This document shows positions 1 to 16,300 of a stretch of DNA of 19,163 nucleotides, in pieces (position 1 is the stretch's first letter; every line of letters starts with the position of its first letter). The position numbers and the translations under genes are program-made. This DNA comes from Candidatus Nanohaloarchaea archaeon (lineage in GTDB: Archaea; Nanohalarchaeota; Nanosalinia; Nanosalinales; Nanosalinaceae). The notes below the pieces were generated by a model. The model worked only from the letters and a program-made list of their open reading frames with translations. It was not told where the DNA came from and made no database searches. The stretch spans positions 1 to 19,163 of the forward strand of contig JBDGRK010000002.1 of the NCBI GenBank assembly GCA_042218075.1. Reading direction: 5' to 3'.

Positions 1-2
1 CA

Positions 3-1634
3 AGCGAGGATGTAGCCCGTTTCAAGAACGGCGGGAGTGTTGAAATCCCGAACGGCAACCTGAGGGTTGACAAAGCAGTCGAGTTGAGTGATATGGGATT
101 CGGTAATTCCTGGGGAGGTATCAAGAACAAGGATGTGGCGGATTCTGACTACGCCCTCCTCCAGAAGGATAATGGACAGACGCTGATTAATACAGATGGA
201 GGTAATTTCATCAAATTCAAGGAGGATGACAGTACAGTTCGGATGAGTTTAGACGCAAACAATAATGTTGAAATCCCGAACGGCAACCTTGACATGAGTG
301 GGAACGATTTGAAGAATGTCGATGATGTCAAGAACTTTACCGCTACAAACATGTTCAGGAACGGGGATATAGAGGATTCTCATACCTCTAATTTTGGAGG
401 TGATGCCTATAGAACCAGCAATGAAGCCTATAAGGGAACATATTCTATGGTCGGCGGAGATTCAGATTTCGGTCAATACGTTGGTGCTTGGATTGTGAGA
501 GACCATACAACTGGGGAATTCAAAGAGAACGAGTCTTACACGCTATACTATTACGCTAAGAATACTGATGACAATGAAAGAACTTATGGATTTGCAGGGT
601 GCGGTGGCATGGCGGTACATACTATACCAGCCAACTCTGGCTGGCAACTCTATAGGGAGACGTTCCAGATTCCTGAAAACTGTGGTTATCCGTCAGCAGG
701 AAAAGGAGAGACTAGGTTCCAGGTGAGAGATTCCCACACATGGAATGGAAAGGTTTACTTTGACAATATTGTTTTGGTGAAAGGGGAAACAAAACAGGAT
801 GAATTCCTGCCACACCCTCAGGACCCTATAGATAATGGGGCAAGTCTTGACTTAAGCGAGTCCGAACTACAGAACGTGGACGGTATCCAGGATGGGAGTG
901 GTACGAACACAATCCATTTCGACGGCAGTAATAATGTTGACATCCCGAACGGCAACCTTAAGGTTGCAGGTAGTGCTGGGACTTCCTCAACTACGTCAGG
1001 GCTGACGATTGATGGTCAGCGGAATGTAGAGTTTCTGACCAGTGGATCCAGGGATTTCCGCCTGTACAACCATGGGGGAAGGATTACATTTGAAGACAGT
1101 GATGAGGAGTTGCTGGATATAAATGAGAACGGCCCTGTTGAAATCCCGAACGGCAACCTTAATCTTGGGTCGTTCCCGCAGCCGGGCAGTGATTCCATGT
1201 GCTGGGACGGCTCCGGGGCTTCGAACATCGGGGACTGCTCCTCTCTGCGCAAGTACAAGAATAACATCACCGACCTCGGCCTCGGTCTGGAGACGGTGAA
1301 CGCGATGCAGCCGCGGCGCTTCGTATGGGATAAGAACATGAGCGGTGAGGAGGACATCGGGTTTGTGGCGGAAGAAGTCGAAAACGTCAACCCGATCATC
1401 GCGGATTACAACGGTGACAACCTGAGCGGTGTCAAGTACCGGCAGTACACCGCCGTCCTCACCAACGCGGTGCAGACACTCGACGACAGAAACGAAGAAC
1501 TGAAACAGGAGAACAAGGAGCAAGAGGAAAGAATAAGTGAGCTGGAATCGGAGATGGAAGAGCTGGAGAGGGAAAACGAGAAGATGAAGGAAGTGCTGTG
1601 TGAGATGAAGCCGGGAGCCGAGTTCTGCGGTTGA
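3..1634 (+). CDS. 5'-truncated modular fibre/adhesin-like protein with a CBM4/9-like domain, C-terminal peptidase S74 (intramolecular chaperone) domain and coiled coil
   Basis: The frame is open from nt 3 (SEDVARFKNGGSVEIPNGNL...), so the true start lies upstream of the window and 84 is not the start. The S74-type signature SSLRKYKNNI..L..V..MQP..F.W....DIGFVAEEV..V.P..........GVKY..Y...L..AVQ lies at about 1239-1480, followed by a heptad coiled coil. The segment NMFRNGDIE...YTLYYYAK...GWQLYRETF...VYFDNIVLVKG (about 348-785) resembles CBM4/9 jelly-roll domains. Confidence 0.85.
   Translation, partial: SEDVARFKNGGSVEIPNGNLRVDKAVELSDMGFGNSWGGIKNKDVADSDYALLQKDNGQTLINTDGGNFIKFKEDDSTVRMSLDANNNVEIPNGNLDMSGNDLKNVDDVKNFTATNMFRNGDIEDSHTSNFGGDAYRTSNEAYKGTYSMVGGDSDFGQYVGAWIVRDHTTGEFKENESYTLYYYAKNTDDNERTYGFAGCGGMAVHTIPANSGWQLYRETFQIPENCGYPSAGKGETRFQVRDSHTWNGKVYFDNIVLVKGETKQDEFLPHPQDPIDNGASLDLSESELQNVDGIQDGSGTNTIHFDGSNNVDIPNGNLKVAGSAGTSSTTSGLTIDGQRNVEFLTSGSRDFRLYNHGGRITFEDSDEELLDINENGPVEIPNGNLNLGSFPQPGSDSMCWDGSGASNIGDCSSLRKYKNNITDLGLGLETVNAMQPRRFVWDKNMSGEEDIGFVAEEVENVNPIIADYNGDNLSGVKYRQYTAVLTNAVQTLDDRNEELKQENKEQEERISELESEMEELERENEKMKEVLCEMKPGAEFCG
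38..61 (+). repeat. In-frame 24-nt module-junction repeat, copy 1 (TGTTGAAATCCCGAACGGCAACCT; VEIPNGNL)
   Basis: Identical to 266-289 and 1136-1159; one mismatch to 935-958. Confidence 0.95.
266..289 (+). repeat. In-frame 24-nt module-junction repeat, copy 2
   Basis: TGTTGAAATCCCGAACGGCAACCT read directly. Confidence 0.95.
935..958 (+). repeat. In-frame 24-nt module-junction repeat, copy 3 (one mismatch; VDIPNGNL)
   Basis: TGTTGACATCCCGAACGGCAACCT read directly; it also shares the upstream AATAA with copy 2. Confidence 0.95.
1136..1159 (+). repeat. In-frame 24-nt module-junction repeat, copy 4 (precedes the S74 module)
   Basis: TGTTGAAATCCCGAACGGCAACCT read directly. Confidence 0.95.
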
Positions 1635-2077
1635 GGTTTACCGTATTGACATAAAACCAGCGATGACAGAACCAAAGACCATCGCGAAAATGCAGACCGC
1701 ATGTTGAGAGGATTAAAAACCGAGTTTATACTTCCTGTCCAAGATCCACCTGATTTCCTTCGATTCCGGGACGAGTCCAGAACCTATCTAGGCCGAGATC
1801 CCTCCACCTCAAGCCGGATAAGAACCATTTCCAGGAACTAGAAGATAGAAAATCAAGCGAATCCGGAACAGCGTTTCTTCATATGACGCCGTCAACTTCT
1901 ACTCGTGCCAGGACCGCCTGACGTTTGACACGTCAAAACCACGTGATTTCCAGGAGATTTGGAAGAGAGATGATCGAGTCGCTCCGGGCTTTTGATTTTA
2001 TCTTTGGCAGGATGTCGTTTGCGTGTATAATCCATGGAAAGCGGATGGAGGTAACATAGGAGAGGAGTAACAGGGTT

Positions 2078-3412
2078 TTAGAGTAGGTCCTCTACATTTT
2101 TGAGTTCTGTGTCTTGTTGCTTGAGTTGTTCTGTGAACCCGTTTCTTGAGAATATGATGTATTCGGTTTTCCTCTGGCTGTTTTTCCATTCCACTTTTTC
2201 TGACTTTTCCCGGAGTTTTTCCAGAGTCTTTCTTCCTGCTGGCTGTGAGGTCCATTTGCATTCTCCGAGCAGTAGCCTGTTCTGTCTATGGTTCACTGCT
2301 GCAACATCGATTTCGTTTTCCTGGTACCACCATGATCCAACTTTCTCGTATTCTTTTGTCTGTCTTACATGGCTCCGGCAGATGTCTTCGAACGGCCTTG
2401 ATACGTACCGGTCTAGCTCGGGTTTGATCTTGTTTTGGAGCACGTTTTCGGTGTTCTGTTCTAGCTCTGTCCGGTTGGGGAAGATGTATCGGAACCAGAA
2501 TCTGAAGTAGTTGTCTTTGATCCGGTATCTTCCTCTTTTGCTCTTTTCTGAGGCGGTCACAGGCAGTCTTTTCTGGATTATATGGAGGTTCTGAAGTGTT
2601 TTCAGGTATTTGCTTACGCTGTTCTGAGGTATGCCTGTTTCGTTTTTGATCTCGTTAAACTTTGTTTTACCTCTTGCTACTGCTTTAAGTATTGAGAAGT
2701 AATTTTTAGGTTCTCTCAGTTCTTGCTGGAGCAGTCCTTCTGCTTCCTCCCTCAGCACCGACCCTTTTTTCAGTATGTGCTGGTGTATGTTCTCGGGTAG
2801 CCTGATTTCCGGGTTGAACTGTTCAAGGTAGTAAGGTGTGCCTCCCAGGATTGCGTAGGTTCTTATTATGTCTTCCTTGCTGTAATCTGGTAGGAACGGA
2901 GATATCTGGTTGTATTCAAAGGGTTTCAGGTGCCACTGTCCTGTTCTCCTACCGTATAGAGGGCTTTCGTATCCCAGGACTTTTGATTCCATCATGCTGA
3001 TAGATGAGCCTGTAAGCACCATGTTTGTGTCTTTCTGTTTCATTTCCTCATCCCATGTTTTCTGGAGTATTTTCAGTATTTCCTCGTCCGTTTCTATCAG
3101 GTACGGGAATTCATCGATCACTACAGTTTTGCAGTTTTCTGCCGTGAACCGGAGAACGGGTTCCCAGTCATTTCTGATATCCTCTATACCAGGGTATTTC
3201 TGGCCTATGCTCTGTTTGAATTCCTGTATCTGGTCTTTTTCAGATTCTCTGGAAACAAGGTGGTATATTCCCTTTGTTTCCTGGAGAACCTTTTTCATCA
3301 GCCTTGATTTACCTACTCTTCTACGGCCGTAAAGTGCTATAAACTCTGCTTGATCGGAGCCCAGCTTTTCTCTAAAGAATTTTAGCTCTTCTTTTCTATT
3401 ATGGAACTTCAT
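2078..3412 (-). CDS. Archaeal AAA-type ATPase (ATPase_2 + wHTH + DUF234 PD-(D/E)XK-like C-terminus)
   Basis: N-terminal FHNRKEEL, Walker A YGRRRVGKS, Walker B VVIDEFPYL, LTGSS, SPLYGR, GGTPYYL, DNYFRFWFRYI, and the C-terminal WW...EIDVAAV...LGECKW. Confidence 0.93.
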   Translation of the reverse strand: MKFHNRKEELKFFREKLGSDQAEFIALYGRRRVGKSRLMKKVLQETKGIYHLVSRESEKDQIQEFKQSIGQKYPGIEDIRNDWEPVLRFTAENCKTVVIDEFPYLIETDEEILKILQKTWDEEMKQKDTNMVLTGSSISMMESKVLGYESPLYGRRTGQWHLKPFEYNQISPFLPDYSKEDIIRTYAILGGTPYYLEQFNPEIRLPENIHQHILKKGSVLREEAEGLLQQELREPKNYFSILKAVARGKTKFNEIKNETGIPQNSVSKYLKTLQNLHIIQKRLPVTASEKSKRGRYRIKDNYFRFWFRYIFPNRTELEQNTENVLQNKIKPELDRYVSRPFEDICRSHVRQTKEYEKVGSWWYQENEIDVAAVNHRQNRLLLGECKWTSQPAGRKTLEKLREKSEKVEWKNSQRKTEYIIFSRNGFTEQLKQQDTELKNVEDLL

Positions 3413-3432
3413 ACTTTGAGTTTAACAGCCGG

Positions 3433-3465
3433 ATTTAAAATGATACTTGTAAGTATGATACTTGT
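3433..3465 (-). promoter_or_regulatory. TATA-like box (TTTTAAAT) plus two 15-nt-period direct repeats (ATGATACTTGT) upstream of ATPase 1
   Basis: ATGATACTTGT occurs at 3440-3450 and 3455-3465, and the pair contains the dyad ATACTT-GT-AAGTAT. The TATA-like box is about 21-29 nt upstream of the ATG at 3412. Confidence 0.6.
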
Positions 3466-3526
3466 GAGAATTATATTTCCTTATGCCTGATGATCTTACA
3501 GAGAGTTGGTAAAAGCATTCGATAGA

Positions 3527-3619
3527 GCCATTATTGCCGCTCAGCACGAGGTCATGAGGGGCCAGCAGCAGGAGATTGATGATTTGAAGGAGAGGGTCAG
3601 GAAACTTGAGAATAACTGA
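3527..3619 (+). pseudogene. Remnant B: orphan 3' end of a probable S74/fibre-type gene (AIIAAQHEVMRGQQQEIDDLKERVRKLENN*)
   Basis: Resembles the QQ.EI..LK.R...LE coiled coil that typically ends S74 domains. There is no intact 5' part. 3555-3610 is repeated at 4371-4426. Confidence 0.6.
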
Positions 3620-3671
3620 AGTTTTTGATCATGACATTATTGATTTAACTTCTGTCACACAAACCGGTGTC

Positions 3672-4034
3672 ATGATGGAGGATGGAAATGAGTGGCTGGA
3701 AAGGGCTGAAAGTGATTTTGATGATGCAACCTATAATCTGGATGATGATAGGTATGCTCCTGGTTTGTTCTTTCTCCAGCAGGCGGCTGAAAAAGCCTTG
3801 AAAGCTGTCGTGGTGGGTAGTGGTGAAGAGCCGAGTTACACTCACAACCTTCTCAGGCTGGCAGAGGAGGCCGGTCTTCCGGATGAAAAGACGAATTATT
3901 TCGCCGAGTTGAATAATCTTTACACTGGAGTAAGGTATCCGGGCAAAGAGTTTGGAGATGTGGAAAATATTGGTGATATGAGAAAATCCGTCAGGGAGGT
4001 GTTAGAATGGACGAGAAAACAGTTGAAAAAGTAG
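3672..4034 (+). CDS. HEPN domain protein (HEPN-MNT pair 1)
   Basis: WLERAESDF..A...........FFLQQAAEKALKA......THNLLRL....L...Y...RYP. ATG 3672 is preferred over 3606 because a TATA-like TTTAAC lies at about 3644-3649 and 3606 falls within remnant B. Confidence 0.9.
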   Translation: MMEDGNEWLERAESDFDDATYNLDDDRYAPGLFFLQQAAEKALKAVVVGSGEEPSYTHNLLRLAEEAGLPDEKTNYFAELNNLYTGVRYPGKEFGDVENIGDMRKSVREVLEWTRKQLKK

Positions 4035-4333
4035 GAGAAACAATAAGATCTATTGCTGAAGATGAAGCTATTAAAATTGATGAACTGATGATATTCGGCT
4101 CACGTGCCAGAAACGATTACACAGAGGATAGCGATGTGGATGTTGTTCTGGTCTCAGAAGATTTCAGGAATGTAAAGTGGTACGAGAGAGGTATGAAATT
4201 CCAGAGAGACTGGGATTATGGAAATTTACCTGATCCGGAAATAATCTGCCTGACTCCAGAAGAGTTCGATGAAAGAAGAAAGAAACTTGGGGATATTGTC
4301 AAGAGAGCAGTACAGGAAGGCATAGAGATATAG
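4007..4333 (+). CDS. Minimal nucleotidyltransferase (MNT) of pair 1
   Basis: IFGSRARNDYTEDSDVDVVLVS matches GSX10DXD; the gene overlaps the HEPN 3' end. Confidence 0.92.
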   Translation: MDEKTVEKVGETIRSIAEDEAIKIDELMIFGSRARNDYTEDSDVDVVLVSEDFRNVKWYERGMKFQRDWDYGNLPDPEIICLTPEEFDERRKKLGDIVKRAVQEGIEI

Positions 4334-4370
4334 GTTTTAATCAGTTATCCGTTTAAATTGGATTAGGTCT

Positions 4371-4426
4371 TGAGGGACCAGCAGCAGGAGATTGATGATT
4401 TGAAGGAGAGGGTCAGAAAATTGGAG
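4371..4426 (+). repeat. Remnant B': direct repeat of 3555-3610 (RDQQQEIDDLKERVRKLE)
   Basis: 45/46 identity for 3555-3600 versus 4371-4416, and 52/56 over the full length. Confidence 0.92.
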
Positions 4427-4602
4427 GAGATCGAAGAGTTTGAACAGAAACATGCCATGAGCTTCGAAGAATTCAAAGAAAAATGGGAGAACGGTGAAAT
4501 AGAGGGAAAGTATTCCTACGATGTCGAAAGCGATTTCTGGGAGTGGGGGGTCTGGTTACCCGGAAGCAGAGGATTCAGGAAGGGCTTGAGAAGATTGGCT
4601 GA
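4427..4602 (+). pseudogene. 5'-truncated, frameshifted small antitoxin-like gene (...FEQKHAMSFEEFKEKWENGEI..YSYDVESDFWEW/EGLVTRKQRIQEGLEKIG*)
   Basis: Resembles archaeal small proteins with the KYGMSFEEF...D..EWE pattern. Adding one base in the G6 run at 4545-4550 gives a stop at 4600-4602, just before the next ATG at 4608. The N-terminus is replaced by remnant B'. Confidence 0.5.
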
Positions 4603-4607
4603 TATTT

Positions 4608-4787
4608 ATGGATGCTGAGGATTTTGCTTCCAGGATAATTGATCTGGCGGCTGAATATGATTTTATCGAAGATTACAGTATTGATATAAGGGAAGAGGTC
4701 GTTCTGGATTCCAGAATTGATCTGGAGCAGGGTTCTGCGGTTGAGGTTCATTCCAAGACCGTGCGTGGTATACTTATCCAGTCATGA
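4608..4787 (+). pseudogene. 3'-truncated partner gene, possibly a DUF6516-like toxin N-terminus (MDAEDFASRIIDLAAEYDFIEDYSIDIREEVVLDSRIDLEQG...)
   Basis: A 59-aa ORF, below the ORF-track cutoff, interrupted at about 4732 by remnant A'. The family guess rests on recalled resemblance only. Confidence 0.4.
4732..4748 (+). repeat. Remnant A': 17-nt exact copy of the fibre gene stop region (GTTCTGCGGTTGAGGTT)
   Basis: Identical to 1622-1638; the 13-nt core also occurs at 6406-6418. Confidence 0.85.
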
Positions 4788-4803
4788 AGATAACATTATT
4801 CAA

Positions 4804-4844
4804 ACTATGTTAGTTGAGACTATGTTAGCTAAAACTATTTAAGT
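4804..4844 (+). promoter_or_regulatory. Three 15-nt-period direct repeats (ACTATGTTAG x2, ACTATTTAAG) overlapping the TATA-like box of ATPase 2
   Basis: Copies start at 4804, 4819 and 4834. TATTTAAGT at 4836-4844 is 22-30 nt upstream of the ATG at 4866. Confidence 0.65.
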
Positions 4845-4865
4845 GTGGATGTTTTCAATTCAAGT

Positions 4866-6245
4866 ATGGAAAAGTTTGTGGACAGGGATGAAGAGCTTGA
4901 CAGGCTCAGAGCCCTATTTGACTCGGATAAGGCCGAGCTGGCGGTCATCTACGGTAGAAGACGGATAGGAAAGACAGGCCTGGTAACCGAGGCAGTAGAG
5001 GAAAGGGATAACACGGTCTACTACCAGGCCATCGAAACCACGAAGAAAGACCAGATAGAAAGCTTCATAGCTTCAGCCGGAGACAGTTTTCCAGAAGTTG
5101 AAAACTTGAAGCAGGAATGGGAGCCAATCCTGAAACATCTCATAAAGGAAGATGCTACCATCATACTTGACGAATTCCCCTATCTAGTGGATTCAGATGA
5201 AAGTCTACCTTCTAAACTACAGAGGATATGGGATCACGAGACAGATGACTCAAAAGCAAAACTAGTCCTAACAGGTTCTTCGATTGGAATGATGTATGAT
5301 ATCGCATTAGAAGGAGGATCCCCACTCTACGGCAGGGTTTCACAGAACCCGAACGGAGAGTTTTCAATCAGCCAGCTCCCTTTCACAGCTGCAACAGAGT
5401 TCTTCCAGGACTACAGCTATGAGGAAAAGGTGCTGGCGTTCAGTATTTTCGGGGGAACACCCCACTATCTCAACGCAATCAAACCGGAGAAAAGCATAGC
5501 GGAAAACGTCCAGGAAACCATTATCTCCCAGAGCGGAGGTCTCCATAACGAACCGGAGACAGTTCTCCGAATGGAACTGGAAGAGGTAAACCGGTACTTC
5601 GCCACGCTGAAATCCCTGGCCAGGGGAAACCGGTCTAGAAATGAAATCATAAACGAAACAGGTATAGACCAGTCCAGCGCAGGTTACTACCTTGACAGGC
5701 TCGAAAAACTGCACATCATACAGAAAGACCACCCGGTAACAGAAGACCCGCGGAAATCGAGGAAAACACGTTACCGGATAAGAGACCAGTTCTTCAGGTT
5801 CTGGTTCAGATTCGTATACGGCCAGACCACAAGATACAACCTCTACGGAGAAAAAGCCTACCAAGAGTTTATAGAGCCCGAGTTAGCAGATTTCTCGAGC
5901 GATAGTTTTGAAGAGCTATGCCATAAAGCCTCGTTAAAACTTCACCCTGACCTCAAATTCAGGAAGATAGGCCGATGGTGGAGAAAGGAGAGGGAAATAG
6001 ATGTTGTTGGATTAACCGACTCAGATGAAATACTTGTAGGAGAAGCCAAATTCACATCCTCTCCACTAGGTTACGACACTCTCTCCAGGCTGGAAGAAGA
6101 CGCAGAACACCTTAACATCGAAAAAGAAAAACGATACGCACTTTTCTCCAGAAACGGCTTCAAGGAATCAGTGAAAGAAGCCGATAATGAAAGAGAAAAC
6201 CTGTATCTCCACAACCTGGAAGAGATACTTGATTCAATGTCTTGA
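4866..6245 (+). CDS. Archaeal AAA-type ATPase (ATPase_2 + wHTH + DUF234), paralogue 2
   Basis: MEKFVDRDEEL, YGRRRIGKT, IILDEFPYL, LTGSS, SPLYGR, GGTPHYL, DQFFRFWFRFV and WW...EIDVVGL...VGEAKF. ATG 4866 is preferred over GTG 4845. Confidence 0.93.
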   Translation: MEKFVDRDEELDRLRALFDSDKAELAVIYGRRRIGKTGLVTEAVEERDNTVYYQAIETTKKDQIESFIASAGDSFPEVENLKQEWEPILKHLIKEDATIILDEFPYLVDSDESLPSKLQRIWDHETDDSKAKLVLTGSSIGMMYDIALEGGSPLYGRVSQNPNGEFSISQLPFTAATEFFQDYSYEEKVLAFSIFGGTPHYLNAIKPEKSIAENVQETIISQSGGLHNEPETVLRMELEEVNRYFATLKSLARGNRSRNEIINETGIDQSSAGYYLDRLEKLHIIQKDHPVTEDPRKSRKTRYRIRDQFFRFWFRFVYGQTTRYNLYGEKAYQEFIEPELADFSSDSFEELCHKASLKLHPDLKFRKIGRWWRKEREIDVVGLTDSDEILVGEAKFTSSPLGYDTLSRLEEDAEHLNIEKEKRYALFSRNGFKESVKEADNERENLYLHNLEEILDSMS

Positions 6246-6246
6246 A

Positions 6247-6418
6247 TGCGGCGCGAAAACACCGAACAATCAGAACGGATCGAAAAGCTGGAAGAAGAGA
6301 ACGAGCGGTTTAAAAAAAGTGCTGCACACCGTCGCTCTCCGAGGACGGTATTCGAGCACCGACCAAGCTGGTCGGTGCGCTCTGCGAGATGAAGCCGGAA
6401 GCAGAGTTCTGCGGTTGA
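6247..6418 (+). pseudogene. Remnant A'': degenerate copy of the fibre gene 3' end, interrupted by a 55-nt double-hairpin insert
   Basis: Reads RRENTEQSERIEKLEEENERF/KKVL...LCEMKPEAEFCG*, compared with KQENKEQEERISELE...ERENEKMKEVLCEMKPGAEFCG* in the intact gene. The frameshift is around the A7 run at about 6312-6318. Confidence 0.88.
6325..6379. repeat. Small palindromic (REP/MITE-like) insert with two hairpins
   Basis: ACCGTC(G)CTC-TCC-GAG-GACGGT at 6328-6349, and the perfect 10-bp stem GCACCGACCA-AGC-TGGTCGGTGC at 6356-6378. Confidence 0.6.
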
Positions 6419-6464
6419 AGAAGTCGGGAAAACTGATTTATTATTAGGCTGATCGTTGTTTTTT

Positions 6465-6824
6465 ATGTCGGATTCTGATCTGTGGCTTGAAAAAGCGGAA
6501 GATGATCTTGATGCGGCAGGATACATGAGAGAGGGAGGTATGTTCTCTCAAGCTGCTTTCCTATACCAGCAGGCTGCGGAGAAAGTTTTGAAGGCGGTAC
6601 TTGTTGAAAAAGGAGAGGGTCTTTTCCAGAGCCATGACTGTTTTATACTGGCTAAGAAGGCGGGAGCTTCGGAAGAAGTTAAGGAGGCCGGGAACAGTAT
6701 CTCGCCTTATTACTTCAGGACTCGTTATCCTGATGCTGACCTGGTTGACCTGGAAAAATCAGAGATTGATAGTGTAGCTTCTTCTGCGGAGGCGATCTTT
6801 GAATGGGCCAGAGAGAGACTTTAG
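6465..6824 (+). CDS. HEPN domain protein (HEPN-MNT pair 2)
   Basis: WLEKAEDDLDAA.......AAFLYQQAAEKVLKA......SHDC..L.....YFRTRYPD. ATG 6465 has a TATA-like TTTATTA about 25 nt upstream. Confidence 0.9.
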   Translation: MSDSDLWLEKAEDDLDAAGYMREGGMFSQAAFLYQQAAEKVLKAVLVEKGEGLFQSHDCFILAKKAGASEEVKEAGNSISPYYFRTRYPDADLVDLEKSEIDSVASSAEAIFEWARERL

Positions 6825-7114
6825 AAAAGATAAAGCAAAAACTGGAGGGAAAAATCGTCATAGATGAAATTTATCTTTTCGGTTCCAGAGCAAAAGGCAC
6901 ATATAATCGTAGCTCAGACCTTGATATCGCGATTGTTTCGGAAAGCTTTAGAGACATGAGCAAAACAGAGAGGTATCACTACGTTATAAATGAAGTAAGA
7001 GAGGTAACGGGTGATACTCCTGTTGATGTCCTCTGTTATACTTCGAGTGAGTTTGAAAGAGGCAGTGATTCTTTCCTTCCTTCGATTATTCAGGACGAAG
7101 GTATCTCAGTATAG
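6803..7114 (+). CDS. Minimal nucleotidyltransferase (MNT) of pair 2
   Basis: YLFGSRAKGTYNRSSDLDIAIVSESF...PVDVLCYT..EF; the gene overlaps the HEPN 3' end. Confidence 0.92.
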   Translation: MGQRETLEKIKQKLEGKIVIDEIYLFGSRAKGTYNRSSDLDIAIVSESFRDMSKTERYHYVINEVREVTGDTPVDVLCYTSSEFERGSDSFLPSIIQDEGISV

Positions 7115-7259
7115 TTGAGGATTCCGTTTATGACTCTACGACAGATTCTGTATCTGAACCTTGAAGGCCGTCTGTGAGGTAGAACTCTGCCTCCTGTTTG
7201 GTGGTGTCTCCTTCATCGATTCTTGAGGACTGGGATGTTTCTGCTTGAGACTCTTTATA

Positions 7260-7563
7260 GACAGGTACGGCTACGGTATCAATGATAAGATTCCTCACCA
7301 GGTCCGGCACATCCCTTTGCTGGCGGCTCACCAGCACGAACTCCAGAAGCACGATGAGAGGATTTCAATGCTACAGAACACGACCGATAAAAGAGCCGGA
7401 AAACTGGAGGTAAGCCACCAAGAGAGAACAGTAACAATCAATGACACCCTGAAGCTCGAGAAGACCTCTCTGTTCCTGCACAGAGGAAGAGGCGGGAGAG
7501 ATCAGGTTCAACGGTTCGGCGCATTTCGCGTGTGACGGAGAGTCGTGGAGCAGGATGTACTAG
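7260..7563 (+). pseudogene. Remnant C: frameshifted orphan 3' end of another fibre/surface protein gene
   Basis: Reads YGYGINDKIPHQVRHIPLLAAHQHELQKHDERISMLQN...TVTINDTLKLEKTSL, then a frameshift at about 7472, then SCTEEEAGEIRFNGSAHFACDGESWSRMY* (TAG at 7561-7563). The C...AG.IR.N.....C.G..W pattern resembles fibre/adhesin linker motifs. Confidence 0.6.
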
Positions 7564-7632
7564 ATCCCTCTGAAGTCTCAGTGGAAGTTCTACCGGTTTG
7601 TGAGAGCAAGTTTTCACACTAGTGAGGAAGAT

Positions 7633-8397
7633 TCAGTCTGTTCCAGGTAGTTTTTCTTCCAGTTTCTCCAGGGATTCCTCGAACGCAGGTGGTGAAGAAT
7701 ATGTGAGTGTTTCCAGTGTTTCCCAGTTTTTCTCGAGCTTCCCAGCCTCCTTAATTATCATCTCCCTGCTGTATTCAAGGCTGTAGTATTCAAGTTTTTC
7801 CTTCACCAGCTCGGTGTCGATTTCAGTTCCCATCGCCAGCAGGTGGTATAAGTCGTAGAGGTCGCGGGGCTGGCTTCTCGTCACCAGCGCCCTTATCTTC
7901 TCCGCCAGTATCTCTTCCCTGTCAAGCACCAGTACTTCAAAGCTGGTGATATCCCGGAATTTCGGGTTGTACCTCCTGTTCCGGAAGTTCGAGGCCGTGC
8001 TTTTCCTGTTGATCTCTATCCTGATGAAGTTGAGGCTTCTCCTGTTGCCAGTGTAAAGCGGCCCCTGGATTCCAAGCCTGGCTCTGTAACTGCTATCTTT
8101 CTCATCTTCCTTCCTCTCTGCAACTTCAGCTCCATAGTTCTCCAGATCCCTGGCGATTTTATCTACCAGTTCTTCAAACTTGATTTCCTGGCGCATCGTA
8201 AAGTCGAGGTCTTCCGAGAACCGGTCAAGCTGGTAGAACTTCAGCAGTGCGGTTCCACCCTTGAATACCAGTTGTTCTGATGTCTCCTTACTTATAGTGG
8301 AAAGTATTATGTCCTGCAGGTAGAGTTTTTCGGCGTATCCCCTGTTTCCTCCTGTCAGCGTTTTCGACATGCTCTCTAACTCCTTTTCAGAGAGCAT
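7633..8397 (-). CDS. abiEii: AbiEii-family nucleotidyltransferase toxin (type IV TA)
   Basis: EKLYLQ..IL, LVFKGGTAL.......RFSEDLDF, EEILAEKIRAL..R.QPRDLYDL. Confidence 0.92.
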   Translation of the reverse strand: MLSEKELESMSKTLTGGNRGYAEKLYLQDIILSTISKETSEQLVFKGGTALLKFYQLDRFSEDLDFTMRQEIKFEELVDKIARDLENYGAEVAERKEDEKDSSYRARLGIQGPLYTGNRRSLNFIRIEINRKSTASNFRNRRYNPKFRDITSFEVLVLDREEILAEKIRALVTRSQPRDLYDLYHLLAMGTEIDTELVKEKLEYYSLEYSREMIIKEAGKLEKNWETLETLTYSSPPAFEESLEKLEEKLPGTD

Positions 8398-9058
8398 CGG
8401 TGTTCACCAGTACCATCCAGTCAGGATTTTTCTCTCCCTCTGCGGGCTGTGAAAGCTCGAGCGGAGTGTAATTTGTGTCCTCCACCATGAACTCCTCCAC
8501 TTCCTCGTCCCTCAATTTTTCGAACAGAAATCCCAGCCGTTTCTTCACGGATTTCTTGCCTGTTCTCTCCGCAAGTTCCACCAGTTTATCTATTTCCACT
8601 TCTTCAACCAGTTCGATCAGCTCCGATACAGCCACCTGTTTTCGACTCAGGCAGTCTATAAGCAGTTTCTCTTTCTCCGCCATGAATATCTCTATTCCCT
8701 TGTACCTTTTCTTCTTGTATCCGAACATGTCCTGGGTGTAATAGAACCTGATGTTGTCAAGGTCTTTCCTGTCAACCGGAGTCATTACATCAATCTTCCG
8801 TGGCGTCTGAGTCGTCAGGTCGTAGTAGCGTAGTCCGGACCAGAGGGAGATGTAGGAGGGCTTTTCTATGTGGGATGCGTAGATCAGGGGGTCATCATGT
8901 AAGGTGTACTTGTTTCGCTCGATCCTCTTCAGATCCCCTTTCTGGACCGCTCTCTGGATCTTTGTTTTCAGGTAGCTCCTGTCCTCTTTCAGCTGTCTCT
9001 GCGCTTCATTCAAATTGAATAGGGGTTTTTCCCTCCCCCAGTCCTTGATCTCTCCCAT
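8387..9058 (-). CDS. abiEi: AbiEi-family antitoxin / transcriptional regulator (type IV TA)
   Basis: N-terminal wHTH (G.LKRIERNKY), PSYISLWSGLRYYDLTTQTP, AEKEKLLIDCL and KRLGFL; it overlaps abiEii by 11 nt. Confidence 0.88.
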   Translation of the reverse strand: MGEIKDWGREKPLFNLNEAQRQLKEDRSYLKTKIQRAVQKGDLKRIERNKYTLHDDPLIYASHIEKPSYISLWSGLRYYDLTTQTPRKIDVMTPVDRKDLDNIRFYYTQDMFGYKKKRYKGIEIFMAEKEKLLIDCLSRKQVAVSELIELVEEVEIDKLVELAERTGKKSVKKRLGFLFEKLRDEEVEEFMVEDTNYTPLELSQPAEGEKNPDWMVLVNTDAL

Positions 9059-9066
9059 AACACGTT

Positions 9067-9128
9067 TTTCTTATCTTTTCCCTTTAAAGTTATCATTTTT
9101 GATCATTTTCTGGGGAAAAAGTAAGAAA
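9067..9128 (-). promoter_or_regulatory. Inverted repeat (16-nt arms, 14/16 match) flanking the TATA-like box of abiE; putative AbiEi operator
   Basis: TTTCTTATCTTTTCCC (9067-9082) and GGGAAAAAGTAAGAAA (9113-9128), with CTTTAAAG at 9082-9089, about 25-30 nt upstream of the ATG at 9058. Confidence 0.6.
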
Positions 9129-9142
9129 TCTGAAGCTGGCTT

Positions 9143-9215
9143 CTTGAAGCTTGAGAAGACCTATCTCAACTCCTGTAAAGAGGAAGAGGCGAGGGAGATC
9201 AGGTTCAACGGTTCC
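9143..9215 (+). repeat. Remnant C': diverged direct repeat of 7449-7517 (LKLEKTYLNSCKEEEAREIRFNGS)
   Basis: The blocks TGAAGCT.GAGAAGACCT.TCT, AGAGGAAGAGGCG and GAGATCAGGTTCAACGGTTC are shared. It ends flush against the pilin stop codon at 9216. Confidence 0.88.
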
Positions 9216-9644
9216 TCACTGCTTGGTCTCTACGCTCCTGTCTCTCTCCATTTCAGGACAGTTCGATGAAGCAATTACCACCTTACCAGGAGTCTTGTTT
9301 GAGTCAAGTGTAACGTTTCTCTCCTCGTCTACCTCCAGAAGCTCAACCTCCTTTGTGTTCAGTATCCTGGAGTTGTTGATCGATGCAACAGTAAGATCTT
9401 CCTCGAAGTTGATGGTTCCTGTGTTGAGCACGGTAACCCTGGTAAAGTTGGCGGAGAAGTCGTATTTTGCTCTCTTGATCGAGAAGCCGGCGTTCCTGCA
9501 TTCTATCTTCCTGTTTTCCTGTTCCGCGACACTTGAAGTCACGTTCCTGGAGAACTCCGGCGCCCAGCTTGCATAGACTGAGGCCATGGACATCCCAACA
9601 AGAAGTATCAGCGTTGCTGTTATTATCTGGGATATTCCTTTCAT
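9216..9644 (-). CDS. Archaeal type IV pilin-like protein (divergent or minor pilin)
   Basis: Class III signal peptide MKG/ISQIITATLILLVGMSMA; IEC..A...V.NTG...SNCPE pattern shared with the neighbouring pilins. Confidence 0.85.
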   Translation of the reverse strand: MKGISQIITATLILLVGMSMASVYASWAPEFSRNVTSSVAEQENRKIECRNAGFSIKRAKYDFSANFTRVTVLNTGTINFEEDLTVASINNSRILNTKEVELLEVDEERNVTLDSNKTPGKVVIASSNCPEMERDRSVETKQ

Positions 9645-9648
9645 GCTT

Positions 9649-10107
9649 CTACGTGTTGATGTTTTCTATTGTGTCGGTCACTTCGCTGCACTTGCTTGAG
9701 TACGCCTCGATGTAGGAAGGCTCGGAACTTACCCCGCTGATGTTGGTCTCGTTGACAGGGTTCTCCACGAGGTATTCCAGGTTTCCGATCTGTTCTATTA
9801 TTTTGTCATCCGAGTCGTATGTCGCTATAATTACATCCGTGAGGTTTACGGGCCCCGTGTTTCTTACAGTTATGACAGTGTAGTTTTCTCCTCCCGGGTT
9901 GTTTCCGTTGTAGAAGGCCGACCTGAGTTTGATTCCTGCCCGGTTACAGTCTATGGTTTCCAGTGTGTTGTTTTTTGTGTCTTCTGTTACTGTTTGGACT
10001 AGGTTTGGTGCCCATCCTGAGAATATTCCGACTACTGCTAGTGCTACTGCAAGTAATAGAATTGAGGCTATTATCGGTGATATCCCTTTCCTCTCCATGT
10101 GTGCCAT
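9649..10107 (-). CDS. Archaeal type IV pilin (paralogue 2)
   Basis: RKG/ISPIIASILLLAVALAVVGIF class III signal peptide; the start could also be 10098. Confidence 0.9.
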   Translation of the reverse strand: MAHMERKGISPIIASILLLAVALAVVGIFSGWAPNLVQTVTEDTKNNTLETIDCNRAGIKLRSAFYNGNNPGGENYTVITVRNTGPVNLTDVIIATYDSDDKIIEQIGNLEYLVENPVNETNISGVSSEPSYIEAYSSKCSEVTDTIENINT

Positions 10108-10144
10108 TTTTCTCTCACCCTTTAATTATTTTCCTCAGTCATGT

Positions 10145-10582
10145 TCAGGTATTTATATCGTTGAGTTCATCGTTCACTTCGCTGCACTTGCTTGAGTACG
10201 CCTCGATGTAGGAAGGCTCGGAACTTACCCCGCTGATGTTGGTCTGGTTTACGGGCTGGCTGACGTTGTAGTTAAGGTTACCGTCCTGCTCAATTATTTT
10301 ATCATCGGAACTGTAGGAGGCTATCACAACGTCTGTTAGGTTTACCGGACCTGTGTTTCTCAAAGTTACGACCATGTAGTTGTCGCCTGAGTTGTAGAAA
10401 GCCGACATCAGCCTTATACCCGCTTCATTGCATTCAACGGTTTCCATGGTGTTATTTCTTGTATCCTCTGTAATCGTGTTCACCAGGTTTGGTGCCCATC
10501 CTGAGAATATTCCGACTACTGCTAGTGCTACTGCGAGTAGAAGGACGGATGCTATGATCGGTGATATCCCCTTCCTGGCCAT
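10145..10582 (-). CDS. Archaeal type IV pilin (paralogue 1)
   Basis: MARKG/ISPIIASVLLLAVALAVVGIF class III signal peptide. Confidence 0.9.
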   Translation of the reverse strand: MARKGISPIIASVLLLAVALAVVGIFSGWAPNLVNTITEDTRNNTMETVECNEAGIRLMSAFYNSGDNYMVVTLRNTGPVNLTDVVIASYSSDDKIIEQDGNLNYNVSQPVNQTNISGVSSEPSYIEAYSSKCSEVNDELNDINT

Positions 10583-12752: not shown

Positions 12753-13393
12753 TGGACCTTCAGTCCTTTCGAGTCCAGGCTGTAGTTGTGGACGTTCTGG
12801 TTGTAATCTGATCCTTTCAGCTTTCTGATGTAAAGCTTTCTCTGCACCTCTTTTCCGTCCTCCTCAACTATCATATCTACTATGCCATCGGCTATCTCTT
12901 CCTCTATCGATGTTGCCTCCCCTGTCTCGGCCAGCATTAGCGCTGTGGCTTCTGAGTTTCTCACTTCTTTCTTTATAGATAGCAGAGTTTTCCTGATGTC
13001 TTTCCTTGAATCTATGTAAAGATCCAGATCTGTTATAGGATCCAGGACTATCCTTTCGGCCTCGTTGACTTTAATCATGCCTCTCAGCATGTCAGCAACT
13101 TCTTCATACCTGTAAGCATTCATTTTTCTTATATTGATTGTCCCGGATTCAACGTATTCCTCGAAATCCCAGTCAAAGGTGGTCGTCCTGAGTATTTCAT
13201 CCTCTGTCTCCTGGAAAGATACGAAAAGGCCATTTTGATCTTCCATAGCACCCCTGTAAAGAAACTCTATTCCAAAGTTCGTCTTCCCGGCTCCCGGTTC
13301 TCCTTCAATCAGTACTGTCTCTCCATGAGGTATTCCTCCCTCGATCTGGTTGTCAAAGTTTCTTATACCTGTCTCTATCCTCTGCATCTTCAC
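12749..13393 (-). CDS. KaiC/RecA-superfamily single-domain ATPase (ArlH-like)
   Basis: RIETGI..FD..IEGGIP, Walker A GEPGAGKT, RIVLDP, ADGIV, R.L.IRKLKGS; 4-nt overlaps with both neighbours. Confidence 0.88.
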   Translation of the reverse strand: MKMQRIETGIRNFDNQIEGGIPHGETVLIEGEPGAGKTNFGIEFLYRGAMEDQNGLFVSFQETEDEILRTTTFDWDFEEYVESGTINIRKMNAYRYEEVADMLRGMIKVNEAERIVLDPITDLDLYIDSRKDIRKTLLSIKKEVRNSEATALMLAETGEATSIEEEIADGIVDMIVEEDGKEVQRKLYIRKLKGSDYNQNVHNYSLDSKGLKVQ

Positions 13394-16300
13394 GCCTCAA
13401 ACGGGTTTTGCTCTACATCAGGGTTTTCAAACGGGTTTTCATCTTCGCTCCCCTCCCTTGTGACTTTGGCCTTCTGCCTCTCAGACTTCAACTTCTTCTC
13501 AAGCTCCGCCACGGGATTCTGCTCCTTCTTTTTCTTCTGCTCTATCCTGTCATCAGAATCTATCTCATCGATCTCTTCCTCCAGGTTAACATTCGTGTCG
13601 ATTTCCTCTTCTTCCATCCTCCTGTCCAGCCTGTCAGGTCTCTCGATATCAACTTTTCTCTCCGCGTCGATAACATCGTCGAGAGAGTACTCGTCGTCCT
13701 CAGAGTTAATCATCTTAAGTATCTCCTCCTTGTTCTTGTAGTATTCATGGATTATCTCCGAAACCCTGTGAAACTCGCTCACGTCTTTTTCTTTAAGCCA
13801 TTTAAGAACCTTTGACCTTCTCTCAAGTTCTTTCTCCAGTTTCTGCTTGCTGACGCCGAAGTCCTTGCTGATCTGGTCGAAAAGGAACGGTTCACCTCTC
13901 TGCTGGAAAGAGTCGTCCATAGCTGTCCAAGAAAACGCCTGGTTTGTTCTGGCGGACGCGGATTCTCCGACCACCTTCTGCAATTCGTGAACGTTTTTCA
14001 CCCGTCTTGCGGACTTTTCGACTCCCTTGGCATGCGTCATTATAACTATGGCGTCTATAGCCTGGATTAGGGCAGGTGAAAGTGATATTGGAGGAGTCAC
14101 CAGTCTCTTCACGACCGCGTTCGGTGATGATGCGTGCATGGTTCCCATGGAAGGGTGACCCGAGGACATTCCCTGGAAGAGGACCGACGCCTCCTCGCCC
14201 CTGACCTCCCCGACAACCACGTAGTCAGGGTTCTGCCTGAATGACTCCTTCAGAAGCTGGTCCATATCCACGTCCCCGTGCGAGTCGGTTCCAAACATCT
14301 CTCTTGTTACAGATGGAATCCAGTTCTCGTGGGGCAGCTGTAGCTCCCTTGTGTCCTCGATTGAAACTATTTTATCTTCCGGAGGAATGAATGAGACGCT
14401 TGCATTCAAGAACGTGGTATTGTGGGTTATCAGCGGTAGCGAACCGGCAGTAAAAGTATGCGAGTCGTCGACCGTAACGTCATAGACAAAATCAGGTGCT
14501 TTCCCTGGCTCTATTCTCTCCACATGCTCCACTCTATCCCAGAAAATATCAGATGAAAGTTCCTCAAGCCTTTGCAGTTCCTCTCTGGCTTCTCCAGCTT
14601 CTATACCTTCCTTTATATTTTGAACAGTAGTTCTCGAAGGAGTTCTCTCTCCATTAAGTATTCTTCCTATCGTTCTTCGTGCGAGTCCCGAAGATTCGGC
14701 AATCTCCCTGTTCGTAAGATCTTCTTTTTCCTTTATATTGGACAAGACTTTCCTGCAGGGTACCAGATCAACATTAGTGTGAGAAGAATCCAGTTGCTCC
14801 AGATTCTCTTTCAGCTGTTCTTCTTTCTCCGGGTGATTAAAACCTATCTCCTCAAGGAATATACTGTTCTGCTGTTCTCCAGAAACCCTTATGCGGTAGT
14901 AATCCTCTCCTTGAACTACCTTCGTGGTTTTTCTTGCTATGATTCCGTGCCTGTGCAGGAGGTTGACAACTTCCTCAGACAGTATTTCTGATGCGGTGGA
15001 GAACACTATCTCGGTCTGTTTCTTTGAAACTTCTGCCTCTGAGTCGAATAAAGCCCTCAGGTATGACGAGGTTACCCCTTCTGGAGACTTGAGTATTTTC
15101 TCATTTGTCGATACTTTCCTGGCTTTAGGCTGATCTACAGGGATCTCAAATACGTATTTCAGAAATTCCCTGAGAGCCTTGGAGCATACTCTTACCCTTG
15201 ACACCCGATCTTCCTGTTCTAGGGTCCTGGTTTCCAGGCCAAATTCCTTCCTCACCAGTTCCCGGAACCTTTCTCTCAGTTCTTTTTCCTGGTTGTGGAA
15301 GTTGACGTAGTTCCCCTCGATGTTTCCGTCGGCCAGTATATAACCGACGAGTTCTGCGAGTTCAGGCGTGACTTCTTCAGGTATCTCCATCGTCTTGCTG
15401 CCATGCATCGATGTCATTCCCTCTACATATCCGAGTGCCTCTTCTTTTGAGAAACTGCTCTCTTCCACTAAGTGTTCCAGGTTCATCCACGGAATCGAGT
15501 TCTGGTTCTGCCACTCGTTTACTGTTCTCCCGGCTTCTTCAAACTCCTCTGATATCTCACTCACACTTTCCTCTTTTTCGTCAAAGATTTGCCTGACCAG
15601 GTCTTCTGCTCCACGTGCGTAGGCTTCTATATCATGACTGAGCGGCTGTATGGGCTGTCTTTCCGTATCGAGATTCATCTCTCTCGGTGTCGCTATAAAG
15701 TCTCCCTCTTCTATCCTGTCCGTTCTTACTTTCTCGACCTCTCCATCTCTGTTTAGTATGAATGGGTGTTCGGGTGTTACGGTGATTTCTGCTCCTCTTT
15801 CAGTCTCTATACGGTAGACTTCGTCATCGTTCTCCAGCTTCAGGAACTTGTTAACTTTTTTCGGCCCTGTCTCCAGGTTCTCGTGCATAGTGTAGAGCTT
15901 CTTGGGTTCTCCCGTCTCTCTCACTTCCTCATGAAGCTCCTCTGCTTCCTTTATGTTTCCGTTACCCATGTGTATTCTATCGTCCGGCGCCACGCATTTT
16001 CCTGTGGCTGTGCCTCCACATATCAGTATTGACTGCTTGTACTGCTGCAGTATCCACATATATGCCATTATATCGGCGCTCGCGGTCCCAAGGTCCATAA
16101 GGTCGACTGCGGAGAAAGGCGTCTCCTGGAACTTTCTTATCGAGAAAGTTGGTCCGTGAGATGTTACGTCTTCCGTCAGCGAGGCGTTGACACGTGAACC
16201 GTCGGGAAGTGATCCGTCCAGCAGCGGGTTCGCGTAGGAAACGTAGCGGCCACAGCGCTCCGCCAGCTTGATGACCAGGTTCTCCAGCCTCTCCTCGTCG

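Follow-up and report, generated by a model that had tools for sequence, protein, structure and literature searches.

Fibre-gene 3' remnants separate toxin-antitoxin and ATPase units in a nanohaloarchaeal island

Chromosomal integrons gather many small cassettes, often toxin-antitoxin (TA) pairs, at one site with border repeats, while the 3' ends of tRNA genes are places where tandem genomic islands and integrase-less, cis-mobilisable elements stack. Additive flexible genomic islands are hot spots between conserved genes, where small units have been gained by some strains and not by others. It is poorly understood how DPANN archaea, which live attached to hosts and whose tiny genomes contain few recognised mobile elements, renew their surface structures and defence genes. 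At Rhs and CDI loci, orphan arrays are thought to result from recombination that displaces the previous gene end. Arrays of orphan modules have been described at the polymorphic toxin genes CDI cdiA-CT/cdiI, Rhs and MafB (PMC4927057).

Here we describe a locus from a nanohaloarchaeal genome (a 1.1-Mb metagenome bin of 40 contigs, G000 in our comparisons) in which a surface-fibre gene and a pilus operon flank a series of TA and ATPase units, with remnants of fibre-gene 3' ends as separators. No description of this tail-punctuated layout was found in open-access papers and preprints. The locus resembles the CDI, Rhs and MafB arrays: a complete gene for a surface or secreted protein has behind it co-oriented fragments of the same kind that lack promoters, and with each fragment goes a toxin/antidote-type pair; the orphans of the present locus likewise lie downstream, in one orientation and without a 5' part. 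No variable C-terminal toxin fused to a fragment and followed by an immunity gene is present, however: the fragments stop at their native stop codon, and the toxins are encoded apart, in TA genes that in some cases lie on the opposite strand. What is conserved here is the extreme 3' tail, whereas in Rhs/CDI it is the region upstream of the variable toxin domain, and the cargo consists of free-standing, unfused TA, Abi or ATPase units on either strand, each with its own candidate promoter. The host, moreover, is a DPANN archaeon, and there is no secretion-linked toxin.

The co-oriented 3'-end repeats between inserts, with the intact gene at one end of the array, recall tRNA-gene islands, and the direct repeats are indeed copies of the 3' end of the target gene. 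The anchor here is nevertheless a protein-coding fibre gene with several unrelated tails and repeats of variable length, some of which share start points, and the arrays examined neither contain nor adjoin an integrase gene, the integrases of the genome being located elsewhere. Reminiscent of integrons are single units with like repeats on either side, which might allow them to loop out; the locus differs from integrons in having no intI, attI or folded attC, in repeats that are translated gene ends and in the mixed orientation of its cargo. Like flexible islands, it adjoins genes for exposed surface structures; unlike them, it has a specific anchor and footprints, the orphan tails, that make events countable.

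Layout of the island

The window is the whole stretch of 19,163 nucleotides that was analysed, at the start of contig JBDGRK010000002.1. The contig start truncates the fibre gene at its 5' end, and the island occupies the 7.6 kb from the fibre stop to the stop of the convergent pilin gene. Its features are as follows.

3..1634, + strand: surface-fibre gene with VEIPNGNL repeats, a Peptidase_S74 domain (intramolecular chaperone) and a coiled-coil tail that contains a Cys pair
1595..1638, + strand: tail A, the intact fibre end (stop codon 1632-1634)
1706..1952, no strand assigned: conserved stretch of unassigned nature, with the fibre stop on its left and the ATPase 1 stop on its right
2078..3412, - strand: cargo 1, ATPase_2 + DUF234 ATPase with wHTH (Pfam E 7e-28 and 1e-24)
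3494..3619, + strand: tail B, orphan of 41 codons plus stop, post-S74 helix type
3606..4333, + strand: cargo 2, HEPN + MNT pair (Pfam E 2e-25 and 2e-10)
4365..4426, + strand: tail B', 62-nt stopless copy of B that runs in frame into the broken antitoxin
4427..4735, + strand: cargo 3, TA remnant (C-terminal half of the antitoxin, N-terminal half of the toxin)
4724..4748, + strand: tail A', the last codons, stop and ~4 nt of an A-type tail
4845..6245, + strand: cargo 4, ATPase_2 + DUF234 ATPase (Pfam)
6247..6418, + strand: tail A'', frameshifted A-type orphan with a two-hairpin insert at about 6310-6378
6456..7114, + strand: cargo 5, HEPN + MNT pair (Pfam E 3e-21 and 1e-13)
7254..7563, + strand: tail C, the longest orphan, ~310 nt (stop codon 7561-7563)
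7633..9058, - strand: cargo 6, AbiEii toxin + AbiEi antitoxin (Pfam E 1e-34 and 7e-5)
9145..9215, + strand: tail C', copy of the central part of the C module, 70 nt long, its right side cut by the pilin 3' end
9216..9644, - strand: last pilin gene of the pilus operon and right border of the island (pilin orthologues)

A sequence-only reading of this DNA had placed seven co-oriented tails around a series of defence or TA units. All seven tails were found at the positions claimed, all on the + strand, and Pfam bears out the units, two of which (of six) are reversed. The TA partners are adjacent and hit family models (HEPN + NTP_transf_2 twice, AbiEii + AbiEi, all above the cut-offs save AbiEi_4), and these remain predicted systems. 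Cargo 3, described earlier as a broken TA-like pair, is just that: compared with the intact pair of genome G023 (L004 1304-1974) it has 68% nucleotide identity, the homology is confined to window positions 4430-4737, and the N-terminal half of the antitoxin and the C-terminal half of the toxin are missing. Its breaks coincide with the end of B' (about 4427) and with A' (about 4731), the latter lying at the exact end of the toxin homology. The region of cargo 4 (window 4795-6211) has a counterpart in G058:C76 with 77.5% identity over 1419 nt. Candidate TATA-like boxes were picked out by eye at 4352-4359 (TTTAAATT), 4837-4843 (ATTTAAG) and 6437-6446 (TTTATTATTA). At the right border, the pilin gene at 9216-9644 has no Pfam match and is 48-50% identical to orthologues in G002, G004 and G001; Pfam identifies Pilin_N in the genes from 9649 onward.

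The repeats between the tails were assessed by blastn against the whole genome. B (3549-3610) and B' (4365-4426) agree at 57/62 nt (E 1e-19), C (7450-7517) and C' (9145-9214) at 60/70 columns with a 2-nt indel (E 1e-15), and A (1595-1634) and A'' (6379-6418) at 36/40 nt (E 5e-9), all far beyond chance. The weakest copy is A', which matches A (1614-1638) at 23/25 nt with a borderline E of 1e-3. Blastn found no further copies of the A, B or C tails in the 40 contigs of the genome. Identical cores measure 38 nt for B/B', 20 nt for C/C' and about 17 nt for A/A', the first two being set within more diverged arms.

That the array might be an artefact, either a chimeric metagenome assembly across short repeats or a set of chance matches, is suggested by the source being a 40-contig bin, by Logan contigs of the likely source run that break exactly at B and B', and by the mere 25 nt of A'. 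Yet run X2, probably independent and from another study, provides pieces with 0 differences across the end of A, across B' and across C, which makes mis-assembly unlikely; among the pieces listed B, A', A'' and C' are unbridged, and X2 has the same arrangement. Given also the E values of 5e-9 to 1e-19 in three of the four repeat comparisons and the occurrence of the layout in four other loci or genomes, we regard an artefact as scarcely credible.

Origin of the orphan tails

The fibre itself belongs to a recognisable class. Peptidase_S74 (PF13884) is detected in it at E 3.1e-6 (27.8 bits, against a cut-off of 22), near the C-terminus and followed by a helical end as in the S74 family, and nine of the 11 PHROG families matched at E<=0.001 fall in the tail category. 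Peptidase_S74 proteins are present in only six of 70 genomes of the order.

Tails B and C had been assigned to fibre genes by motif resemblance. B ranks second among 31,576 ORF fragments of the genome (E 0.0038) with an HMM built from five foreign S74 tails, and it matches the last 23 residues of an S74 protein of G069 (BLASTP E 5e-5). Tail C is in two parts: positions 7254-7388 form a proximal post-S74 helix, and positions 7419-7563, which contain a frameshift, form a distal terminal module. The proximal part matches the last 45 residues of the same G069 protein (BLASTP E 2e-8), with tail C scoring E 2.5 against the foreign S74-tail HMM; a C-tail HMM gives 73.5 bits for tail C and recovers C' at E 2e-4. 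The distal module forms the terminus of intact fibre-like proteins in three other genomes, in a search that included 70 genomes: G017 (231 aa), G059 (144 aa) and a Pacearchaeota MAG (at least 537 aa). Both B and C therefore match ends of S74 or fibre genes, and the mismatch by which the assignment could have fallen did not appear; the S74 evidence in the orphans is confined to the post-domain helix. Intact parents with a TA unit directly downstream do occur: in G017 the C-type gene is followed by MNT and HEPN genes. No intact B-type parent was found, B having only weak matches among 70 genomes, and B and C had 0 matches in a large protein collection. Since B and proximal C both resemble the post-S74 helix, the division into three tail families is better cast as two S74-type endings, one with the Cys pair (A) and one without (B), plus an additional C terminal module.

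Among eight aligned C-type copies from two genomes with GC contents of 0.47 and 0.66, similarity stops at or just past the stop codon, the left ends vary, and tail differences between genomes are mostly synonymous or conservative. The stop-codon boundary, the variable left ends and the codon-like substitution all speak for leftovers of gene 3' ends, as originally proposed. The boundary and the substitution pattern also speak against an integron-type array in which the tails are attC-like folded sites, translatable by accident. Such an array would account for small promoter-bearing TA cassettes with border repeats, as in chromosomal integrons, and integrons have been reported in Archaea. Of six junction segments, however, five fold no better than shuffles (z -0.59 to +1.54), and in the sixth the folding is due solely to a separate hairpin insert; the tail stop codons are followed by no conserved motif, no integrase adjoins the array, and two of the six cargo units are reversed. 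With neither intI nor attI near the array and no attC-like folding at five of the six junctions, the integron reading is largely refuted, and we give it very little weight.

Another reading takes the tails for decayed tandem paralogues: several full fibre genes, each with its unit, would have suffered independent deletions that spared just the 3' ends. In G004 and G058 two or three fibre-like genes do follow one another, and C retains about 310 nt. This history would, though, call for deletions that occurred independently six times in the window and six times in each of two further arrays (C10 and G038), sparing exactly the stop-proximal end every time, and recombination between neighbouring paralogues would give gene fusions rather than tails. 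We consider it improbable.

Recurrence of the layout and the empty site

The same genome contains two further such loci, C10 and C25, and arrays occur in G038 and G058. In C10 six orphan tails, all in one orientation, come after the gene for a 698-aa secreted protein. They are 36-91 codons long, share 47-71% identity, in several cases contain stops or frameshifts, and divide PIN and RHH units as well as unassigned ones, on either strand; several of these tails have common start points. In C25 two 105-nt fibre tails (88% identical) flank a DUF433/DUF5615 pair, beyond which lies an ATPase_2/DUF234 gene. G038:C11 has six C-type tails among UPF0175/DUF3368, PIN and MNT/HepT units and ends, like the window, at a convergent pilin-like gene, and cassettes in G058:C76 are bordered by D-type remnants. 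Particular tails also keep company with particular cargo: a C tail precedes MNT/HEPN in G017 (the intact gene) and G038, and a D tail and a small ORF precede PIN in G000:C10 and G013:C28, G058 having the tail and small ORF. One cassette (C10:10811-11572) is 86% identical to its G058 counterpart over 765 nt, with D-tail pieces on both flanks in both genomes that are only 70-77% alike. Layout and tail-cargo linkage thus recur in other loci and genera, and this recurrence at other loci and in related genomes points to gene ends as docking points for new cassettes.

In G004 and G001, which belong to the same genus, a gap of 1-3 nt separates the stop codons of a fibre-like gene and the orthologous pilin gene, with no array between them, an empty site; tblastn in the four syntenic loci recovered not one of the 11 proteins encoded by the window's fibre gene and array. 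The array is an insertion relative to these genomes. Two or three consecutive fibre-like genes stand at the corresponding locus in related genomes (G004, G058).

We think it probable that repeated recombination at the 3' end of the surface-fibre gene has built the locus up, cassette by cassette, into an additive island in which displaced tails were left behind. The sequence-only reading had seen in the tails the homology anchors of an integrase-free island. Their gene-end origin, the empty site, recurrence and linkage support this in part; joining by homologous recombination with no dedicated recombinase, as well as the order of events, is inferred. Incoming DNA would comprise a fibre 3' end and the defence or TA unit downstream of it in the donor. 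With the left crossover within or upstream of the conserved tail and the right joint inside the resident tail, the truncated resident tail and all older units would shift downstream. Pairs of like tails round one unit (B/B', A'/A'', C/C') would reflect recombination between tails of the same kind, and such a tail-cargo-tail block might be excised as a loop and inserted again at any similar tail. Where the tail type changes (A to B, B' to A', A'' to C), the fibre allele itself would have been replaced. In favour of such an island we count the lack of a PF00589 integrase gene among the window's ORFs (Pfam), the lack of excess hairpins at five of six junctions and the lack of a post-stop motif. 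Against it stand the short identical cores (38, 20 and about 17 nt), the B' fusion to mid-antitoxin, which would require an extra deletion, the missing B-type parent and the 0 matches of B and C in the protein collection. In C25, moreover, some cassette borders are non-coding repeats and not gene tails, and in G013:C39 TA units lie away from any tail. Neither tail-to-tail deletion joints nor circles were seen among contigs, and with the identical X2 arrangement no event was caught in the act.

The main rival is a trans-acting integrase, by which small integrase-less elements would be mobilised by a tyrosine recombinase encoded elsewhere, at an att site overlapping the fibre 3' end, with a replacement copy supplied. 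Tandem events of this kind yield co-oriented 3'-end repeats irrespective of cargo orientation, and the 38-nt and 20-nt identical cores flanked by more diverged arms also speak for it. Furthermore, the orphan tail to the right of the shared cassette begins at the same codon in C10 and G058; common start points fit inheritance as a block but also a site-specific cut. The genome has five PF00589 matches (contigs C13, C16, C37, C19, C23), of which three, on C13, C16 and C37, are Phage_integrase genes above cut-off; all three are on contigs other than that of the window, which also counts against an integrase-free island. On the other hand, at least four unrelated tails (A, B, C, D) would demand several specificities, three of them within a 7.6-kb array, tails measure anything between 25 and about 310 nt in the window, those in C10 spanning 36 to 91 codons, many orphans are just 47-71% identical with no common core, and no integrase was found in the window or among the ORFs scanned in the G038, C10 and C25 arrays. 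We judge site-specific integration unlikely, if less so than the alternatives considered above.

If the tails are anchors, recombination at gene ends would be a simple, recombinase-free way of accumulating cassettes that standard island and integron finders miss. Orphan tails would be countable footprints of gene-end replacement (at least six in the window, six in C10 and six in G038), and stop-proximal fragments of an upstream surface gene provide a search rule for such islands. More tentatively, fibre 3' ends in Nanohaloarchaeota, and perhaps in other DPANN, could be recombination sites of an integrase-free cassette system that trades TA and defence units between genera, the addictive cargo helping to retain a newly acquired fibre allele. 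This offers a testable link between TA 'addiction' and the fixation of surface-protein alleles; if true, fibre diversification, for host attachment or virus evasion, would be mechanically coupled to the turnover of defence genes.

The stretch at 1706-1952 has no Rfam match at E<=1, and is 76% identical to positions 2716-2963 of G000:C10.

Layout of the array in the window

The genome to which the window belongs (G000, with the window as its contig C12) comprises 1.10 Mb in 40 contigs, with a GC content of 0.47 and a completeness of 92%, and encodes acidic proteins; relatives are about 1 Mb in size, the sequencing run is recorded as a salt lake metagenome, and the organism is probably a nanohaloarchaeon. 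Six cargo units lie between a surface-fibre gene and a convergent pilus operon, which beyond its pilins contains two T2SSF genes, a KaiC-like ATPase and an intein-bearing PilB ATPase; an arginyl-tRNA synthetase gene is also present.

3-1634, + strand: surface-fibre gene, 5'-truncated, with a Peptidase_S74 domain
9216-10582, - strand: pilins of the convergent pilus operon
13390-16887, - strand: PilB-type ATPase with an intein carrying LAGLIDADG and HTH domains (Pfam Intein_splicing, E 7e-23)
19028-19125, - strand: 98-nt tRNA in the ARAGORN output, given a four-base anticodon and no assigned type; probably an archaeal tRNA with an intron

The array contains no tRNA fragments as att sites, and a search of positions 1-9800 against Rfam (E<=1) gave no match. 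A stretch of about 250 nt at 1706-1952 is 76% identical to C10:2716-2963 in another island of the same genome; it includes a short palindrome, with neither a convincing ORF nor an Rfam match.

The sequence-only reading had described seven fibre-gene tails, all on the + strand, and all seven are present in that orientation: A, the end of the intact gene, followed by the orphans B, B', A', A'', C and C'. The cargo is likewise as described, namely two ATPase_2/DUF234 ATPases, two HEPN+MNT pairs, an AbiEii/AbiEi pair and one toxin-antitoxin (TA) remnant. Like tails resemble each other to the extent listed below, and no further copies of these sequences were found elsewhere in the genome.

Similarity between like tails (E values against the whole genome)
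A and A'': 36/40 nt identical, E 5e-9
A' and A: 23/25 nt identical, E 1e-3
B and B': 57/62 nt identical, E 1e-19
C and C': 60/70 columns identical, E 1e-15

Compared with an intact pair in genome G023, the TA remnant lacks the first half of the antitoxin and the second half of the toxin. One break falls at the end of B' and the other at A', so that the tails are placed exactly at joints. TATA-like boxes at the cargo were recognised by eye only. Error-free contig pieces from a sequencing run of another study (X2) span the end of A, B' and C; the cover of this run is gapped (for example at 3483-3855), and the gaps carry no evidential weight. Across positions 1-10500, neither a B-B', A'-A'' or C-C' joint nor any other sign of excision or integration was seen in four runs (X1-X4), which were compared as contigs that drop rare variants. 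A joint of 4215 to 5791 was discounted as likely foreign, one side being only 21 nt long. A single contig of run X3 joins 1491, in an S74-like stretch, to 7509, in a C-type end, with a side of 53 nt and divergence past the stop; it hints at a relative whose fibre carries both the S74 region and a C-type end, and is too uncertain to count.

Tail A'' holds an insert of about 70 nt (6310-6378) with two hairpins (fold z -2.8). The insert recurs in a genome of another family (L006, G032:C5, about 1501-1565), where it lies in frame within a 563-aa ORF, its first 40 nt 95% identical and its second stem rebuilt through compensatory changes. One possibility is a mobile element, small and palindromic, that can lie inside coding sequence.

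Relative to same-genus loci, the array is inserted sequence. Synteny of the pilus operon extends across the genus, and in two relatives (G004 and G001) just 1-3 nt separate the stop of a 172-aa fibre-like gene from that of the orthologous last pilin. None of the fibre or array proteins of the window was detected (tblastn, E<=1e-5) in four syntenic loci, drawn from three same-genus genomes and G017; G003 was left out as it gave a paralogue match only.

The tails are ends of protein-coding genes

That the tails derive from the ends of coding genes is shown in three ways. C-type sequence occurs in six co-oriented copies on a contig from another family of the order (G038:C11, GC 0.66), in an array that is also bounded by a pilin-like gene (Laminin_G_3), which is convergent and meets it with its 3' end. 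Across eight aligned C-type copies, similarity ends at or just past the stop codon and the left ends vary; no conserved motif was seen 3' of the stop codons. Decay of tandem full-length paralogues is given less weight here, as it would need many deletions, each sparing the stop-proximal end. The changes between the G000 and G038 copies are mostly synonymous or conservative. This codon-like conservation would be left unexplained by an integron-type array, a reading that fails also in that five of the six junction segments show no stronger folding than shuffled sequences and that there is no neighbouring integrase.

The C module was found in 4 of the 70 genomes searched across the order, and closes intact proteins.

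G017: 231 aa, with a signal peptide and the VEIPxGxL motif of the fibre; module at the end
G059: 144 aa; module at the end
Pacearchaeota MAG: at least 537 aa; module at the end

The S74 family itself is present in 6/70 genomes. The C-terminal ends of the order's five foreign S74 proteins were used to build an HMM. Among the 31,576 stop-to-stop fragments that G000 contains, it ranked the fibre first (E 5.6e-8) and tail B second (E 0.0038), with B' at E 0.33 and the C fragment at E 2.5. Proximal C aligns with the last 45 residues of the S74 protein of G069 and B with its last 23 (pairwise, single-comparison E 2e-8 and 5e-5, respectively). On these matches A, B and proximal C are read as S74-type endings, C with an additional terminal module; the prospect, set against the sequence-only reading in advance, that B and C are unlike fibre ends is thus not borne out.

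A close intact B-type parent was found neither among the 70 genomes nor in a large protein collection, which gave 0 matches each for parents of the B and C tails, and in JGI metagenome contigs neither the C-tail alignment nor the last 210 residues of the fibre had a confirmed relative. Tail B had matches in 8/70 genomes at E<=0.05, the best outside the window (E 8.5e-4) being a small protein upstream of the PolB gene in G009, G060 and G056, which was rejected as a parent and judged to share a coiled-coil ending. The small protein is conserved directly 5' of the family-B DNA polymerase gene at these loci (L026, L027 and L028), and its coiled-coil end resembles tail B at E 8.5e-4 to 0.01.

Recurrence of the layout and of tail-cargo pairs

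A screen of G000 for direct repeats (>=80% identity, 35-400 nt long, 300-6000 nt apart) returned 24 pairs on nine contigs, of which C10 and C25 were analysed further.

G000:C10, 7926-16000 (L064): second array; 698-aa secreted protein (7926-10022), then six orphan copies of its end, here called the D tail
G000:C25, 8390-8494 and 9248-9352 (L065): third locus; two 105-nt fibre ends, 88% identical

The C10 orphans are co-oriented, 36-91 codons long and 47-71% identical; several contain stops or frameshifts, and all extend to one common stop position. Between them lie units with PIN, RHH or unassigned small genes, on either strand. On C25 the fibre ends bracket a DUF433/DUF5615 pair, after which another ATPase_2/DUF234 gene follows. 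D tails occur in 3/70 genomes, and on G058:C76 D-type remnants lie at several cassette borders beside fibre-like genes, two detected by tblastn and three short ones by eye from translations and one alignment.

Other repeats were noted in passing. Upstream of the C10 array (1-7600) are more TA units, an AAA_14/DUF4143 ATPase and an AbiE pair. Two C25 repeat pairs (3857-4068/4918-5129 and 2954-3087/3793-3925), also at cassette borders, are non-coding in six frames, and one of them begins 75 nt past the stop of a 442-aa fibre-like gene. C29 carries a repeat of about 120 nt in four copies (2353-4636, L066; 95-97% identical) and C3 two repeat pairs (L067). In G023:C1 (L004), an S-layer-like gene is followed by three TA pairs that share 43-55-nt direct repeats at the cassette starts (602-656, 1252-1294 and 1924-1979; 98% and 82% identical), which consist of promoter and first codons rather than a gene tail.

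Tail and cargo also recur together. The sequence-only reading had proposed looking for intact parents with cargo downstream, and in G017 the C-tailed gene is followed directly 3' by MNT+HEPN; in G038 two C-type orphans each precede an MNT/HEPN-type pair. MNT-HEPN genes are described as conserved in DPANN in PMC6393860. Downstream of the D tail, G000:C10 and G013:C28 share a small ORF and a PIN gene; in G058 the D tail is followed by that small ORF. A cassette at C10:10811-11572 matches one on G058:C76, from a different genus, at 86% identity over 765 nt, and each genome has D-tail pieces on both sides of it. The similarity between these flanking tails is only 70-77%, as expected if orphans drift as pseudogenes. 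The ATPase 2 unit of the window is 77.5% identical to a G058 sequence over 1419 nt. For the HEPN2/MNT2 and AbiE units, the closest relatives (G013:C39 and G037:C26) lie in other contexts, with no tails beside them.

Assembly of the array

Coding ends, empty sites, recurring layout and tail-cargo linkage give good support to that part of the sequence-only reading in which displaced fibre-gene ends record the serial acquisition of linked cargo; its further proposal, a mechanism without an integrase, is plausible. In our search of open-access papers and preprints, no account was found of archaeal TA cassettes separated by orphan gene tails.

The right ends of the tails are fixed and the left ends variable, and the tails are co-oriented whatever the strand of the cargo. 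Like tails flank single units, the tail type switches along the array, and the joints cut the resident tail and, once, the cargo. Repeated recombination at the 3' end of the fibre gene explains all of these facts best. The tail would serve as the homologous anchor for each event, and tail-cargo-tail blocks might be able to loop out and then re-enter. The recombination at the gene end proposed for the orphan arrays of Rhs/CDI loci works alike. A trans-acting integrase using att sites in the gene end carries less weight but is the serious rival: it is favoured by recurring start points of some orphans, identical cores within more diverged arms and three integrase genes on other contigs of G000, and disfavoured by four unrelated tail sequences, varying tail lengths and the low identity of many orphans.
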